Of a DNA stretch of 28,377 nt, positions 6,191 to 15,045 are shown in pieces. Source of the stretch: a virus (Duplodnaviria > Heunggongvirae > Uroviricota > Caudoviricetes); the IMG/VR virus record IMGVR_UViG_2675903575_000014, positions 1 to 28,377 of that record; one strand, given 5' to 3'. Each line of letters begins with the position of its first letter. Positions within the stretch are counted from its first letter, which is position 1. The translations under genes and the position numbers were made by a program. A model generated the notes under the pieces. It ran no database searches and was not told the DNA's origin. It saw only the letters and a list, made by a program, of their open reading frames with translations.

Positions 6191-6841
6191 CTATAGGCTG
6201 AACTGCACACCTTTTGCTACAGCAACAATTTTACATTCAGGTGTCAGTAAGGACGATTGATAGCGAGGATTGAGGGGGCTTAAATACACGAGTTTTCCGT
6301 CGATGACTAATTTTTTTATAGTCATAGATGGTTCGTTTGTAAGCGGATCTGGGACTATTACAGCGACGATACTACCATTTTTATATTTTTCTCTAGGCCT
6401 CATGATCACTGTGGCACCAACCGGAATGCTTGGCGACCCTGATGGGTTGTGCATAGTGTCATCAGGCATTGAAACGGCAAAATCCCCCTCCTTGACGTCA
6501 AAGAATGTGGTGATTCTGTCGGCATTTCCCATAGTTTTCTCTCCTTCTAAAATTAGGAAAGAAATTGCTTCCCCCCATGAAAGATAGGGGATTTGGGTGC
6601 CTGAATTGTTCTGCACAAGGGTAGGTTCAGTAGACGATACTCCATATAGGAGATAGGACTCAGTAGTTCCTAGTGCTTGGGCTAATTTACTAAGAGCTTT
6701 GCTACCGGGTTCGTTTAGGTCTTTCTCCCAGTACCCTATAGTTACCCCTGTTACGCCAGAAAGCTTGCCCAGTTCGACTTGGGTCAGTCCCTTGTCTTTT
6801 CTGAGTCTCTTAAGCCTAATGCCAAGGCTTTCCATCATCAT
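6191..6841 (-). CDS. cI: CI-type prophage repressor (HTH_XRE N-terminal domain plus LexA/S24-like autoprotease C-terminal domain)
   Basis: N-terminal LKRLRKDKGLTQVELGKLSGVTGVTIGYWE is a classic XRE helix-turn-helix. The C-terminal domain has a Ser in the AVSMPDDTM context and a Lys in TIKKLV, consistent with the S24 catalytic dyad. Three tandem ATGs; the third (6835) has the best SD spacing. Divergent from cro. Confidence 0.85.
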   Translation of the reverse strand: MMMESLGIRLKRLRKDKGLTQVELGKLSGVTGVTIGYWEKDLNEPGSKALSKLAQALGTTESYLLYGVSSTEPTLVQNNSGTQIPYLSWGEAISFLILEGEKTMGNADRITTFFDVKEGDFAVSMPDDTMHNPSGSPSIPVGATVIMRPREKYKNGSIVAVIVPDPLTNEPSMTIKKLVIDGKLVYLSPLNPRYQSSLLTPECKIVAVAKGVQFSL

Positions 6842-6865
6842 CTCCCGTGAATTGAATATAAATTA

Positions 6866-6918
6866 TTTTAGATTGCATTGACCTAAAAAAAATTATCCTT
6901 TAATCTAAAAATACTTAG
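6866..6918 (+). promoter_or_regulatory. PR promoter and OR operator region
   Basis: -35 TTGACC (6878-6883), 17-bp spacer, -10 TAATCT (6901-6906); a 14-bp palindrome CTAAAAATACTTAG (6905-6918) with the same CTAA-N6-TTAG architecture as the OL site; GGAGGG SD before the cro ATG. Confidence 0.5.
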
Positions 6919-6933
6919 TTTTAGGAGGGTGAA

Positions 6934-7161
6934 ATGCGAGTTGATGAACTTGTCCAGTTTTTTGGCTCTGTTCAGAGAGTTGCCGATTTTTATGGGATAA
7001 CCCGTGAAGCTATATACATGTGGCGCAAACGTCCTGGTGAAATAGTTCCCAAGGGGAGGGCCGCGGAAGCTGCCGCATACTCCAAGGGAAAATTATCTTT
7101 GAACCCAGAACTTTACAAAAAGAAGGATAACACCTTGAACGAAGGAAAGAATGATTCATGA
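6934..7161 (+). CDS. cro: Cro-like transcriptional regulator (YdaS/Cro family, 75 aa)
   Basis: Small HTH protein divergently transcribed from the repressor gene; motif FYGITREAIYMWRK; its stop overlaps the next gene start (ATGA). Confidence 0.75.
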   Translation: MRVDELVQFFGSVQRVADFYGITREAIYMWRKRPGEIVPKGRAAEAAAYSKGKLSLNPELYKKKDNTLNEGKNDS

Positions 7162-7583
7162 AAATCAAGCATGAACACATCCGCATGGCGATGAATGCCT
7201 GGGCGCGTCCTGATGGCGAAAAAGTTCCAGCAGCTGGAATAACCCAGGCTTATTTTGAGTTGGGTATGACGTTTCCTGAACTGTATGACGATAGCCATCC
7301 GGAAGCCCTGGCTCGCAATACCCAGAAAATTTTCCGCTGGGTAGAGAAAGACACCCCTGATGCAGTTGAAAAAATTCAGACGTTGTTACCAGCGATCGAA
7401 AAGGCAATGCCACCTTTGCTGGTGGCCAGAATGCGCAGCCACAGTTCAGCTTATTTTCGGGAGCTGGTGGAGACGCGGGAGCGACTGGTGAGAGACGCTG
7501 ATGATTTTGTCGCAGTGGCAATCGCCGGTTTCAATCAGATGAACCGTGGTGGCCCGGCAGGAAATGCTGTGGCAGTACATTGA
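7158..7583 (+). CDS. YdaT-family protein (Rac-type CII functional analogue, 141 aa)
   Basis: Position immediately after cro and size match Rac ydaS-ydaT. I recall the MKIKHEHIRMAMN... N-terminus as YdaT-like, but this is from memory and unverified. Confidence 0.6.
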   Translation: MKIKHEHIRMAMNAWARPDGEKVPAAGITQAYFELGMTFPELYDDSHPEALARNTQKIFRWVEKDTPDAVEKIQTLLPAIEKAMPPLLVARMRSHSSAYFRELVETRERLVRDADDFVAVAIAGFNQMNRGGPAGNAVAVH

Positions 7584-10993: not shown

Positions 10994-12874
10994 TTATCGC
11001 CCAGCAGATTTAGCAAGAATAGTCTCGAGCATTTCTGGTACGTTGCCTTTAGCATTGATAGTTGCTGTTCGGTAAGCTAGTTGATTTTTTGAGAGATTGA
11101 TTCCTGTAAGTGCTTCAATTTCGTTGCAGGCCTTACCCCATTCTACCCAGTTTTCAGACAAAAAAGATTCAAGATGATCCGCAAATATAGCAATATCATT
11201 AGTAACTGTTGCAGCTGGAAAATCCTCTTCGGGCATACCAAAGTATCTAAGCAGACTTCGATTCTCCATTGCGTGATTATTCCGCTCGGCATCGATAGCT
11301 CCCTGCATTTTATTTTTCGCTTTGGCACGAGCTTCAAAACCCGCATCTGCATCGAAAAGCGCGAAAACAGGAACGCCAATTGTACTTAGAATCGCATGGG
11401 CAAGTGGGATTGATGTCTTTGAACCTACAGGAACAATAGAGATGCCAGCGGCTTCAAGCGAGCCGTGTGACTTCCTGTCGCCAATTCCATAAAACACCGA
11501 TAATTCTGTTGTCCCTTCTACCAGAAAAGCTCTTTGGGCAAAGAGAGCTATTGAAAGCTGATCAGCTACATTATGGCCAAGCCTTCTATCAACTACTTCG
11601 GCATTAACAATTCCTTTTAATTTATCTTTGACATCTTCGATGGTTGCAAAGTGAACAGAAACAACGGGGTTTGCATCAGATGTTCGTGTCAATCGTCTAA
11701 TCTGGTTGAAATGGCGAGCTTCAAGAAAGTATGGGCTGTGAGTCGCATATGTTATCTGTATGCGCTTATCCGCATCTTCGGCGAGTTCTCTGAGTACTTT
11801 TGCAAATGCTTGTGCTTGGATCGGATGCTGAAATAATTCTGGTTCTTCGATCGCAAGGCAAATAACACCTTCGGTAGAGGCTGCACCAGACTGAGCTAAT
11901 AATTGGAGAGCAGAGATCAGTATCGTGCGTTGAAAGCCGTGCCCTTGCCTTTCGACTGCTGTTTCGGTTGTGCCATCAAGCACAGAAACTTCGAATGTGG
12001 TCTTGGGGGCCTTCAGTTCGATATTTGCAGGGGTAACTGTAACAGCACGACCGGGGGAGTAAGTCGTAACTACGGCGTTCAACTGCGCCGTCATATCCGC
12101 AAGTTGGGTTTCGAATTTTTCTTTGTAGACTTTCTGCTGCTGGACTCGGGATTCTTCAACAATCTTTGCAATTTCCTCATCTGCGGCGGTGCGATCAATC
12201 GAACGTTCAAGAATTCGACCAATAATACTCGCCTTGCCATCGAGAGACTCTTCACTGGCACGAAGATCTGCTGTTACCAAAACGTAATCAAAGAGACCGC
12301 TCATCTTGCCGCCACTGTTGAAACCGAAAAAGTTGGTTTGTAGGGATTCAAGTGCCTCATGTAGTAATTCTGTATGTGATGCTTCCCATGCAGTCATTGC
12401 TTCTTCGACAGCAAGCCCGGTCTTGGCAACGGGAAGATTGAATTCAGGATGTGCTTCTCGAAGAGCGTTGTACAAATCCTTCTTCGCTGTTGCTCCATTA
12501 GCAGCTTTAATATCGTTAAAATAAGGGAAACTTTTTGCGTTGGCAGAAAGCCTTTCTGAACCGTCGGGCGCGCGTAGCCTCCAGGCAGTGAATGTTGCTG
12601 CTCCCTGCGGAGCGTATTTGCCAAGTGCTTCACGATCTCTCTCAGTGAGGTTTGAGAAGGTAACCTGTACCTCAATATCTTTATCAATAGTTCCAAATGA
12701 GCAATCTTTTTCATTTAACATCCCGACCTTACCGTTGAAGAACCAATCAAGTGCTCGGAGAACAGTAGATTTACCTGCCCCATTCGGGCCAATGAACGTT
12801 GTAACGGAATCGAAGGGAATATTTATATCTGTCAAAGTACGAAAGTTTTTTATCCTAACGGAATGAATTTTCAT
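10994..12874 (-). CDS. OLD-family ATP-dependent nuclease (N-terminal ABC-type ATPase plus C-terminal Toprim; 626 aa); class 1 OLD or fused PARIS AriA-AriB-like
   Basis: Walker A GPNGAGKST (residues 30-38); Walker B-like VICLAIEEPELFQHP; H-loop-like YATHSPYF; C-terminal Toprim-like FLVEGTTE, VPVGSKTS and FALFDADAG. No adjacent UvrD-like helicase gene. AT-rich relative to flanking phage genes. Confidence 0.8.
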   Translation of the reverse strand: MKIHSVRIKNFRTLTDINIPFDSVTTFIGPNGAGKSTVLRALDWFFNGKVGMLNEKDCSFGTIDKDIEVQVTFSNLTERDREALGKYAPQGAATFTAWRLRAPDGSERLSANAKSFPYFNDIKAANGATAKKDLYNALREAHPEFNLPVAKTGLAVEEAMTAWEASHTELLHEALESLQTNFFGFNSGGKMSGLFDYVLVTADLRASEESLDGKASIIGRILERSIDRTAADEEIAKIVEESRVQQQKVYKEKFETQLADMTAQLNAVVTTYSPGRAVTVTPANIELKAPKTTFEVSVLDGTTETAVERQGHGFQRTILISALQLLAQSGAASTEGVICLAIEEPELFQHPIQAQAFAKVLRELAEDADKRIQITYATHSPYFLEARHFNQIRRLTRTSDANPVVSVHFATIEDVKDKLKGIVNAEVVDRRLGHNVADQLSIALFAQRAFLVEGTTELSVFYGIGDRKSHGSLEAAGISIVPVGSKTSIPLAHAILSTIGVPVFALFDADAGFEARAKAKNKMQGAIDAERNNHAMENRSLLRYFGMPEEDFPAATVTNDIAIFADHLESFLSENWVEWGKACNEIEALTGINLSKNQLAYRTATINAKGNVPEMLETILAKSAGR

Positions 12875-13385: not shown

Positions 13386-13469
13386 TTTTATATTGGCGAG
13401 GTGACGTGAGTTAAGTAGAATTGCTGCGGGTGCTTGAGGCTATCTGTCTCAGGCATGAACACCAAAGGC

Positions 13470-13560
13470 AGATAGAGAAAAGCCCCAGTTAACATTACGC
13501 GTCCTGCAAGACGCTTAACATTAATCTGAGGCTCAATCTATGAACGGCAAATCTAGGTTA
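13470..13560 (-). ncRNA. Predicted Sok-like antisense RNA of the hok locus (position approximate)
   Basis: Inferred from hok/sok family architecture. The leader (gcttgaggctatctgtctcagg ... ggcagatagagaaaagcccc) resembles, from my memory of R1, the hok mRNA 5' region. No explicit promoter was mapped. Confidence 0.25.
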
Positions 13561-13596
13561 GCCTCTTACGTGCCGAAAGGCAAGGAGAAGCAGGCT

Positions 13597-13752
13597 ATGA
13601 AGCAGCAAAAGGCGATGTTAATCGCCCTGATCGTCATCTGTTTAACCGTCATTGTGACGGCACTGGTAACGAGGAAAGACCTCTGCGAGGTACGAATCCG
13701 AACCGGCCAGACGGAGGTCGCTGTCTTCACAGCTTACGAACCTGAGGAGTAA
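13597..13752 (+). CDS. hok: Hok/Gef-family type I toxin (51 aa; MKQQKAMLIALIVICLTVIVTALVTRKDLCEVRIRTGQTEVAVFTAYEPEE)
   Basis: Single transmembrane helix followed by the conserved Cys-containing periplasmic tail typical of Hok/Gef; I recall this as matching E. coli HokD/RelF, unverified. An in-frame upstream ATG at 13540 gives a 70-aa mok-like extension. Confidence 0.85.
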   Translation: MKQQKAMLIALIVICLTVIVTALVTRKDLCEVRIRTGQTEVAVFTAYEPEE

Positions 13753-13820
13753 GAGACCTGGCGGGGGAGAAATCCCTCGCCACCTCTGATGTGTCAGGCA
13801 TCCTCAACGCACCCGCACTT

Positions 13821-13842
13821 AACCCGCTTCGGCGGGTTTTTC
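13821..13842 (+). terminator. Rho-independent terminator after hok
   Basis: ACCCGC-TTCG-GCGGGT hairpin followed by TTTT. Confidence 0.6.
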
Positions 13843-13967
13843 GTCGCATTATGAGGTTGTAATTTTAGCTACCATTAGACTATCCTAAGGATCTCAAACA
13901 GATCTATTTTGCATCAAATTTGGTGCATGGCTTTGCCAATAATCGGAAAACAAAAGGACTCATTAGT

Positions 13968-14147
13968 ATGAGCTGCCCACTCAAAAAACACACGCGGTTG
14001 AGTATTCCGCCTCGCGATAAAAGCGTTGTGGCAGTCCCTCGCCCAGCGATTGATGAAAACTGCGCACATCGTGAACAAGTGAAAAATGCTTTTGATTTCG
14101 GTTTTTCTCGTTATGAGAAAGCCATGGAAGAACTTTCAAAAGTGTAA
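13968..14147 (+). CDS. Candidate antitoxin for the Doc-like toxin (59 aa)
   Basis: Small ORF 19 nt upstream of the Doc-like gene; AAAGGA SD. No clear similarity to Phd; assigned by position only. Confidence 0.4.
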   Translation: MSCPLKKHTRLSIPPRDKSVVAVPRPAIDENCAHREQVKNAFDFGFSRYEKAMEELSKV

Positions 14148-14165
14148 TGATGGGTATTGTGCTCT

Positions 14166-14651
14166 ATGGCTGAGATTGTTGAAGGAGTGCATTACCTTAC
14201 GGTTGATGATCTTGTTGAAATCAATCGTTCCCTAATTGAATTACAGACGCCAGATGAGCCCGTTGGTGTTCTGAGTCCAGATAACTTAAGTTCTTCTCAG
14301 GCCCGTCCCAGCATGGTTCGATGGTATGAACAGACTAATGACATGTTTGTACTGGCATCGGTATTGATTGAAAGTCTGATTCAGAATCATCCGTTTGCTA
14401 ATGCGAACAAACGAACAGCTATGATGGCTGGTTACGTCTTCTTGTTGTTGAATGGCTATGAGTTAACAGCACCAGGCGATGAAATCGTGGAAATGGCAGA
14501 GGGACTGGCCTGCAAAACCTATACTCGAGAAGATCTCGAGAACTGGTTGTGTTATTGGTCTCGCGCGTATGACAGCCGGGAATTATGTAAAACAGGCGCA
14601 ACTATTGTTTTGTATGAAACTATCAAGCTTAGAATAGAACAGCAAAACTAA
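14166..14651 (+). CDS. doc: Doc-family toxin (Fic/Doc fold, 161 aa)
   Basis: HPFANANKRTA matches the Doc signature H-x-F-x-(D/N)-(A/G)-N-K-R (P1 Doc has HIFNDANKRTA). Size is appropriate and it is followed by a terminator. Confidence 0.8.
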   Translation: MAEIVEGVHYLTVDDLVEINRSLIELQTPDEPVGVLSPDNLSSSQARPSMVRWYEQTNDMFVLASVLIESLIQNHPFANANKRTAMMAGYVFLLLNGYELTAPGDEIVEMAEGLACKTYTREDLENWLCYWSRAYDSRELCKTGATIVLYETIKLRIEQQN

Positions 14652-14666
14652 AGGCGCTTCCAATGA

Positions 14667-14696
14667 AAACCCGCTTCGGCGGGTTTTGTTTTTTCC
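14667..14696 (+). terminator. Rho-independent terminator after doc
   Basis: AAAACCCGC-TTCG-GCGGGTTTTGTTTTTT; same hairpin core as the hok terminator. Confidence 0.6.
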
Positions 14697-14766
14697 GGGC
14701 ATTCTGGTTTACAATCTGCACGCCAGCCTGAACAACTGGCACCTGCTGCGCCAGCAGAGAAAACAG

Positions 14767-15045
14767 ATGGCGCACAAGACCAAATTACACAATTCTGATA
14801 ATTCAGCCGCTTTTGCCAGCAGGCACGGGCGGCGTTCTCATGTATTCAAATCTGACTGGTACCAGCATCCCCCATGCACTGAAGAACAGGCCGAATGGCT
14901 GATTCAGTGTTACGGCAGGCGCGGATACGAGGTTAAGAAAGCCCTCAGCCTCGATTATCGTCACTGGATAATCTCTGTCAGGCTCCCTTATTCCGAACGT
15001 CCACCGCGTCCATCCCGCACATACCAGCAACGTATCTGGAGGTAA
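14767..15045 (+). CDS. Hypothetical basic protein (92 aa)
   Basis: ORF ending 1 nt before the GTG of the next gene, whose GGAGG SD lies within its 3' end; weak own SD. Confidence 0.35.
   Translation: MAHKTKLHNSDNSAAFASRHGRRSHVFKSDWYQHPPCTEEQAEWLIQCYGRRGYEVKKALSLDYRHWIISVRLPYSERPPRPSRTYQQRIWR

Follow-up and report, generated by a model that had tools for sequence, protein, structure and literature searches.

A conserved 59-residue protein is the probable near-minimal antitoxin of a Doc-family toxin in a lambdoid Escherichia coli prophage

The stretch of viral DNA studied here, IMG/VR record IMGVR_UViG_2675903575_000014 (28,377 nucleotides, the whole of which we call the window), is a lambdoid (Rac/Qin-like) prophage of Escherichia coli that carries a Doc-family toxin gene preceded by a small open reading frame (ORF) encoding 59 amino acids (aa). 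We conclude that the two genes are probably a type II Doc toxin–antitoxin (TA) pair, carried by the prophage as a moron cassette, in which the antitoxin consists of little beyond a neutralizing helix and a conserved proline-rich N-terminal motif. The small gene lies upstream, adjoins the toxin gene and is inherited together with it, which is the layout of type II TA systems. The gap between the two genes in the window is 18 nucleotides (nt), and Doc has an alternative in-frame start, the TTG at 14157. An earlier reading made from the letters alone (the sequence-only reading) had given both ORFs the positions at which we find them:

13954–13958, plus strand: Shine-Dalgarno AAGGA, 9 nt ahead of the small-ORF ATG, read from sequence
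13968–14147, plus strand: small ORF, 59 aa, MSCPLKKHTRLSIPPRDKSVVAVPRPAIDENCAHREQVKNAFDFGFSRYEKAMEELSKV, ATG at 13968 and TAA at 14145–14147, a putative minimal Doc antitoxin
14067–14141, plus strand: codons 34–58 of the small ORF, predicted Doc-neutralizing helix (from AlphaFold2 (AF2), hhalign and the lowest ratio of nonsynonymous to synonymous substitution (dN/dS), 0.11)
14166–14651, plus strand: Doc-family toxin, 161 aa, Fic-fold kinase, ATG at 14166 and TAA at 14649–14651
14388–14414, plus strand: catalytic motif H75-PFANANK-R83 within the Doc ORF
14544–14648, plus strand: subfamily C-terminal extension, Doc residues ~127–161, from the subfamily alignment

The downstream gene had been called a Doc-family toxin bearing HPFANANKRTA, and profile searches agree. 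The protein matches NCBIfam TIGR01550 DOC_P1 (1.5e-37; 128.5 bits, cut-off 38.65), Pfam Fic PF02661 (6.6e-12; 46.6 bits, cut-off 24) and PHROG 577 ('Doc-like toxin'), a family that PHROGs places in the category 'moron, auxiliary metabolic gene and host takeover'. Its best match in the Protein Data Bank (PDB) is the Enterococcus faecalis Doc (EFDoc; 9vzc_A, 4.7e-13), and P1 Doc is also retrieved (3k33_A, 5.6e-5). HPFANANKRTA corresponds to residues 75–85, of which H75-P-F-A-N-A-N-K-R83 fits the published consensus HxFx(D/N)(A/G)NKR (PMC4177925) exactly, with a Lys of the kinase type at position 8. The H, F, N, N, K and R of this motif are invariant among 19 subfamily members. Judged by the motif, and by analogy with P1 Doc, the 161-aa protein should be a Doc kinase that phosphorylates EF-Tu. 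The subfamily is further marked by its C-terminal extension, conserved as W127-L-C-x-W131-S-R133-x-Y-D136-S-R-x-L140-C141 (WLCxWSRxYDSRxLC) and followed by a variable tail. This extension is always accompanied by a member of the small-ORF family, and P1 Doc, EFDoc and the AbrB-partnered Docs described below lack it. An AF2 model of Doc alone, built from a shallow alignment, reached a predicted local distance difference test (pLDDT) score of 54 and was not used for fold search.

The small ORF matches PHROG 2208, annotated as 'unknown function', over its full length (6.9e-41). It has no Pfam or NCBIfam match even at E<=1 and no PADLOC match. A word-indexed search returned 15 clusters of homologues, and when HMMER was run exhaustively over 1.84 billion representatives, just 38 proteins reached E<=1e-3; these are mostly 47–95 aa long, and none has an additional recognizable domain. 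The C-terminal half of the family is nearly invariant (QVKNAFxFGFSRYEKAMEELSKV). Its N-terminal counterpart varies more, yet retains a conserved RLxIPPRDK...P(R/K)P motif, with I13, P14 and R16 each kept in 90% or more of 45 sequences. Comparisons between genera, which are saturated at synonymous sites, give a dN/dS of about 0.14 for the whole ORF, 0.11 for the C-terminal half and 0.23 for the N-terminal half.

The ORF is very short, lacks a family annotation and sits 7–18 nt ahead of Doc, as would suit an element that acts only in cis, either as a leader peptide or by translational coupling for Doc, or an ORF that is simply spurious. We regard this as highly improbable given that the amino acids are conserved from E. 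coli to Pseudomonas at dN/dS values of 0.11–0.23 despite saturated synonymous sites, that the nearly invariant C-terminal half is confidently modelled by AF2 as a helix, and that the ORF has its own Shine-Dalgarno sequence. The PHROG 2208 match, the dN/dS of about 0.14 and a linkage to Doc across three bacterial orders together show that purifying selection acts on the small ORF, which is a genuine gene and not a chance ORF.

To examine this linkage, we used the Doc subfamily as query against a single genome of each species, which gave 25 loci. In every one of the 22 genome loci with a Doc of 45% identity or more, a 55–59-aa homologue of the small protein lies directly upstream of it; these loci are from Enterobacterales, Gilliamella and Pseudomonas/Stutzerimonas. 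The same arrangement holds at 80 of 80 IMG/VR viral loci, with both genes full length and 7–18 nt apart. The sequence-only reading was right to place the ORF in the position of an antitoxin. Both genes are annotated as intact in 60 of 60 E. coli records sampled from 125 carriers. Since flanking genes are mostly unrelated among the linked loci, the pair moves as a unit. In Pseudomonas phages Sirocco and LPPA56 it is found just downstream of an integrase gene, and in three phage records the partner is either unannotated or 'hypothetical'. At two loci, in Proteus penneri and Arsenophonus nasoniae, one gene has decayed: Doc is broken and the small ORF is intact, the direction expected of a toxin–antitoxin pair. 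The three most distant Docs recovered (33–41% identical) are preceded by AbrB/MazE-type antitoxins of NCBIfam TIGR02609 ('doc_partner').

These doc_partner proteins provide the closest comparison for the small protein. An AF2 model made with the 45-sequence alignment (mean pLDDT 81) has one helix at residues 34–57 and no globular domain. Confidence is highest over residues 31–59 (block-mean pLDDT 82, 91 and 94), and residues 1–33 are extended, proline-rich and without regular structure, with I13, P14 and R16 at pLDDT 77–84. The helix is amphipathic and carries F42, F46, Y49, M53 and L56. When the broad small-ORF alignment was compared with doc_partner at full length using hhalign, residues 34–58 aligned with 50–73 (P=5.3e-5, probability 67%), which is the extreme C-terminus of both families, and comparison of the C-terminal halves only gave P=7.4e-7 and a probability of 92%. 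In control comparisons, the N-terminal half of the small family gave P=0.83 against the AbrB domain and P=0.21 against the doc_partner tail, and the C-terminal half gave P=0.47 against the AbrB domain. The best PDB match of the doc_partner profile is 9vzc_B (1.1e-5), the partner chain of the structure that the window Doc itself matches best. Residues 52–79 of 9VZC chain B form a bent helix inserted in the concave groove of EFDoc (PMC13034048). In Salmonella Phd, which has 73 residues, the toxin-binding hot spots are F56, M60, H63, L67 and L70, the first and last of them termed 'gatekeepers' (PMC9207808). In the 59-residue protein, F42, F46, Y49, M53 and L56 repeat this 4-3-4-3 spacing, and L56, like L70 of Phd, is followed by three final residues; the sequence of P1 Phd was also checked for this comparison. 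Because the doc_partner match is short, the C-terminal tail of the small protein is probably, though not certainly, homologous to the Doc-binding tail of doc_partner.

The N-terminal half has no such counterpart. The Phd/YefM (PF02604) alpha/beta domain for DNA binding and dimerization is not detected in the small protein by models or AF2, and no AbrB/MazE/SpoVT swapped-hairpin N-terminal domain is detected either, as neither TIGR02609 nor PF04014 matches the ORF. When all 45 family members were searched, no Phd/YefM, AbrB, ribbon-helix-helix (RHH), other DNA-binding or antitoxin model was matched at E<=10; the search against antitoxin families that the sequence-only reading had proposed is thus negative. 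We considered whether the N-terminal half could be a decayed AbrB domain, with RLxIPPRDK corresponding to GVILPKE, and rejected this given the hhalign value of P=0.83. An RHH fold, hinted at by a beta-alpha-alpha-like pattern, is without support from models or AF2. A Foldseek search of the PDB with the small-protein model gave no match, a single helix being uninformative. The sequence-only reading had said of the small ORF (...QVKNAFDFGFSRYEKAMEELSKV) that it does not resemble Phd and has no obvious Phd-like N-terminal domain. This stands for the DNA-binding half; the reading missed the similarity of the C-terminal tail, which is related at profile level to the doc_partner tail and has the Phd hot-spot spacing. 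The N-terminal half of the protein is thus unlike Phd and AbrB, and its putative neutralizing half resembles that of known Doc antitoxins.

Strict linkage proves partnership, not inhibition. The small protein could instead be an obligatory partner of another kind, for instance one that activates a Doc-like enzyme, adapts it to its substrate, or helps it to fold as a chaperone or by 'fold-complementation'; the enzyme would then serve the phage in host takeover or exclusion. The PHROGs category of the Doc family would agree with such a role, as would the conserved C-terminal extension of this subfamily, which P1 Doc and EFDoc lack, and the fact that the small protein is unannotated everywhere. 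We nevertheless consider this improbable: a small protein that is encoded a short gap upstream, and whose C-tail is homologous to that of known Doc antitoxins, fits the description of an antitoxin, the decayed pairs lost Doc and retained the small gene, and the Doc motif has the canonical kinase form (PMC4177925). The sequence-only reading had left open whether the ORF is a divergent antitoxin or not an antitoxin at all; strict linkage and purifying selection favor the former.

In the TA pair that we favor, the Doc kinase would phosphorylate EF-Tu and stop translation, as its P1 counterpart does. The C-terminal amphipathic helix of the small protein (residues 34–58) would sit in the Doc groove and inactivate the toxin, like the C-terminal helices of Phd and of the AbrB-type doc_partner; homology, linkage and the direction of decay all point to neutralization by helix docking. 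The small protein would thus act as a 'linear', neutralization-only antitoxin without a recognizable DNA-binding fold. If the supply of antitoxin were cut, by loss of the prophage or by host shut-off by an infecting phage, free Doc could arrest growth, and the outcome might be prophage stabilization or, equally speculatively, abortive infection. There are precedents for parts of this scheme. A Phd-C element fused to SUMO suffices to neutralize a Doc toxin, and antitoxins made of a neutralization element alone exist (PMC10440598). PaaA2, from a prophage of E. coli O157:H7, is an antitoxin without a DNA-binding domain (PMC8630535).

Several observations weigh against this interpretation. The C-tail similarity covers only ~24 columns, and amphipathic helices can converge. 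A narrower small-ORF alignment compares weakly with doc_partner (P=0.0022, probability 13%, 16 columns), and a hidden Markov model (HMM) of the tail ranks family members just below true AbrB matches, with individual sequences reaching at best E=0.03. A search of PDB sequences with the small-family profile retrieves neither Phd nor EFPhd, the only hit being a chance match to ribosomal S25 (E=0.2). In a Yersinia-like contig (L029/P0145; Logan SRR17333919, 205–870), Doc is intact (158 aa) but the adjacent small ORF has a frameshift that removes the C-terminal helix. If real, this frameshift would argue against the antitoxin being essential; the contig is a single read assembly, and misassembly may account for it. 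The model assigns no role to the strongly conserved N-terminal motif, and the DNA upstream of the pair is enriched in palindromes. Within 110 nt upstream of the module, 15 of 21 loci have a palindrome with arms of 6 bp or more, against 4.2 expected, and 0 of 300 shuffles contained as many. This enrichment points to a DNA-binding regulator, which a neutralization-only antitoxin does not supply, and it leaves room for DNA binding of a novel kind by the N-terminal segment. The leader in the window contains the following candidates:

13876–13927, plus strand: leader with weak regulatory candidates, read from sequence, their functions putative
13876–13881, plus strand: possible -10 element TAGACT, with no convincing -35
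13882–13892: short palindrome ATCCTAAGGAT
13890–13904: short palindrome GATCTCAAACAGATC
13910–13927: short palindrome TGCATCAAATTTGGTGCA

The small protein might then be a complete, autoregulating antitoxin whose C-terminal helix neutralizes Doc and whose basic, proline-rich RLxIPPRDK segment binds palindromic operators, either by forming a beta-ribbon on dimerization or by binding only when scaffolded by a Doc dimer. We treat this as possible, if on the whole unlikely. The enriched palindromes (15 of 21 loci) speak for it, as does the absence of any further protein encoded in the cassette. So does the conservation of I13, P14 and R16 (at least 90% of 45 sequences) in a segment modelled at pLDDT 77–84 without regular structure. 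EFDoc, moreover, is dimerized by its own antitoxin (PMC13034048), a precedent for the scaffolded version. Promoters in Providencia and Morganella are also suggestive. At five loci of these genera, a strong promoter (TTGACT-17-TATAAT) lies ~60–95 nt upstream of the small ORF, with a perfect 22-nt palindrome (e.g. TAATGTAACTTAACTTACATTA) between the -35 and -10 elements and a second palindrome, ATACGCATCGTAT, just downstream. On the other side, no DNA-binding family matches any member of the small-protein family at E<=10, and the N-terminal half gives P=0.83 against the AbrB domain and no fold with AF2. The palindromes vary in sequence and position by genus, are heterogeneous, yield no operator consensus common to genera, and might instead represent RNA hairpins or be recognized by regulators of the host or phage. 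In the window copy, perfect arms reach only 5 bp and there is no clear promoter; a sigma-70 consensus scan found none upstream of the small ORF in the window. The motif ATAC-N5-GTAT was seen to recur in Serratia, Yersinia and Hafnia.

A bolder proposal, which we hold to be doubtful, is that the 59-aa protein founds an undescribed class of minimal antitoxins in which RLxIPPRDK is a new functional element, either a Doc-scaffolded DNA-binding arm or a sensor or degron that frees Doc on infection. Were it a DNA-binding arm, the toxin would supply the dimerization normally given by the antitoxin. Were it a sensor or degron, the hok-Doc-OLD region described below would amount to a prophage defence island whose mechanism is the phosphorylation of EF-Tu. 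In addition, the N-terminal motif may pair with the subfamily-specific C-terminal extension of Doc.

The probable TA pair of the window is bounded by two copies of a terminator repeat:

13821–13843, plus strand (exact repeat 13821–13840): left copy of the 20-nt terminator hairpin AACCCGCTTCGGCGGGTTTT, the hokD terminator and left cassette boundary, identified as a direct repeat
13841–14687, plus strand: 847-bp cassette downstream of hokD, comprising the leader, small ORF, Doc and its own terminator copy, defined by the repeat spacing of 847 nt
14666–14697, plus strand: intrinsic terminator formed by the right copy of the 20-nt repeat (14668–14687) and a T-run, identified by terminator scan and repeat

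We used a synthetic cassette-free junction to look for the empty site, in which a single hairpin copy joins hokD straight to 14688 onward. Of 5426 E. coli genomes, at least 2918 contain this junction as one contiguous match, and 125 carry the cassette. Because the empty site is common and the cassette occurs in 125 genomes, the cassette behaves as a moron inserted after hokD. The empty site has one copy of the repeat, and recombination between the terminator repeats may be the route by which the cassette is gained or lost. Avian pathogenic E. coli (APEC) O1 and O104:H4 have the cassette in the same slot after hok. A megablast search of a phage collection with the cassette gave no match, and an Rfam scan of the module gave only sub-threshold matches at the terminator hairpins (13755–13842 and 14600–14795), with none inside the ORFs.

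An identical copy of the studied stretch is found in E. coli EC42405. RefSeq calls in the early part of that prophage include an integrase, an exonuclease, dicB, an immunity region of the cI/cro/ydaT type, replication genes and hokD. The small ORF is a 'hypothetical protein' (WP_001277774) and Doc a 'death-on-curing family toxin' (WP_000818168), and these are followed by DUF968, RusA, Q, lysis genes and terminase. In the window, the immunity region (6191–7583) contains a LexA/cI-type repressor, a Cro-like gene and a 'YdaT family' gene. The RefSeq name 'toxin YdaT' is probably misleading, because YdaS and YdaT are analogues of Cro and CII and not a toxin–antitoxin pair (PMC8630535).

Directly upstream of the Doc cassette is a hokD/sok type I TA system (13428–13752; Rfam sok, 9.3e-26 at 13428–13602), with the Hok ORF at 13540–13752 or in a shorter form beginning MKQQKAML. 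Further upstream, a 626-aa OLD-family ATPase/Toprim nuclease (10994–12874, minus strand) stands alone between the replication genes and hokD; its PADLOC matches are Old (3.9e-55), AriA (1.6e-43) and GajA-like. In the EC42405 prophage, otherwise near-identical, the OLD slot holds two unrelated plus-strand hypothetical genes, so this is a variable defence slot. In O104:H4 strain C227-11 (L111, 3235–3864), the Doc cassette is followed by an opposite-strand gene for a RelE/ParE-family toxin and an adjacent helix-turn-helix (HTH) gene, and three TA-type units (hok, Doc and RelE/ParE-HTH) thus lie side by side ahead of the nin genes. The hok-Doc-OLD region looks like an accretion site for TA and defence genes, and this would make an abortive-infection or prophage-stabilizing role plausible.

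The public annotation of the records examined names the toxin only, in effect leaving an 'orphan' Doc. These records cover 125 complete E. coli genomes, among them O104:H4 outbreak strains, O157:H7, enterotoxigenic E. coli (ETEC) and APEC O1, as well as related Salmonella and Pseudomonas prophages. With the 59-aa gene recognized as the probable antitoxin, the module would be complete and PHROG 2208 would gain a function. Nature would also have provided an example of a near-minimal, neutralization-only antitoxin, a case relevant to peptide inhibitors of Doc and to the way in which portable toxin-binding peptides are built into antitoxins. The finding extends known biology and does not introduce a new principle.

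The closest solved relative of the toxin is EFDoc, which belongs to the systems that pair Doc with an AbrB-type doc_partner (TIGR02609; composite MazE-Doc/TasA-TasB, PMC1626090; EFPhd-EFDoc 9VZC, PMC13034048). The AbrB-partnered Docs and the window Doc have the segment NGYELTA in common, and in both cases the antitoxin gene is directly upstream. The tails of doc_partner and the small protein also end alike, in RY-x-x-A-[LM]-x-x-L-[SA]-[KE], in keeping with their profile kinship (P=5.3e-5). The doc_partner proteins differ in having an AbrB/SpoVT swapped-hairpin domain and a length of 73–83 aa, whereas the small protein has 59 aa and no such domain. The window Doc, unlike the AbrB-partnered Docs, has an extra conserved C-terminal extension of ~30 aa.

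Phd-Doc of P1 and Salmonella (3K33/3DD7; PMC9207808) is likewise phage-borne, with the antitoxin gene first and the same Doc kinase motif, although P1 Doc is only a distant relative of the window Doc (5.6e-5). The C-terminus of the small protein is, like that of Phd, an amphipathic helix, predicted to carry hydrophobic residues in the 4-3-4-3 spacing of the Phd hot spots and with three residues past the last Leu. The small protein lacks the Phd/YefM N-terminal domain, however, its identity to Phd 52–73 is only 4 of 22 positions (counted by eye), and its AF2 helix is straight whereas that of Phd is kinked. PaaA2-ParE2 from the cryptic prophage CP-933P of E. coli O157:H7 (PMC8630535) similarly has a small antitoxin without a DNA-binding domain in a lambdoid prophage. 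It differs in its toxin, which is of the ParE family, and in having a third gene, paaR2, as regulator; the 847-bp cassette has no third gene.

The nearest concept is the portable Phd-C element described in the NetFlax study (PanA_Phd-C with Doc D6; PMC10440598), in which a short C-terminal helix is enough for neutralization and is combined with various N-terminal parts. In the small protein the element is joined to a 33-residue proline-rich segment, in place of a folded domain such as Panacea, YefM or AbrB. As the isolated Phd-C element needed a SUMO tag (PMC10440598), this N-terminal segment may serve to stabilize the helix.

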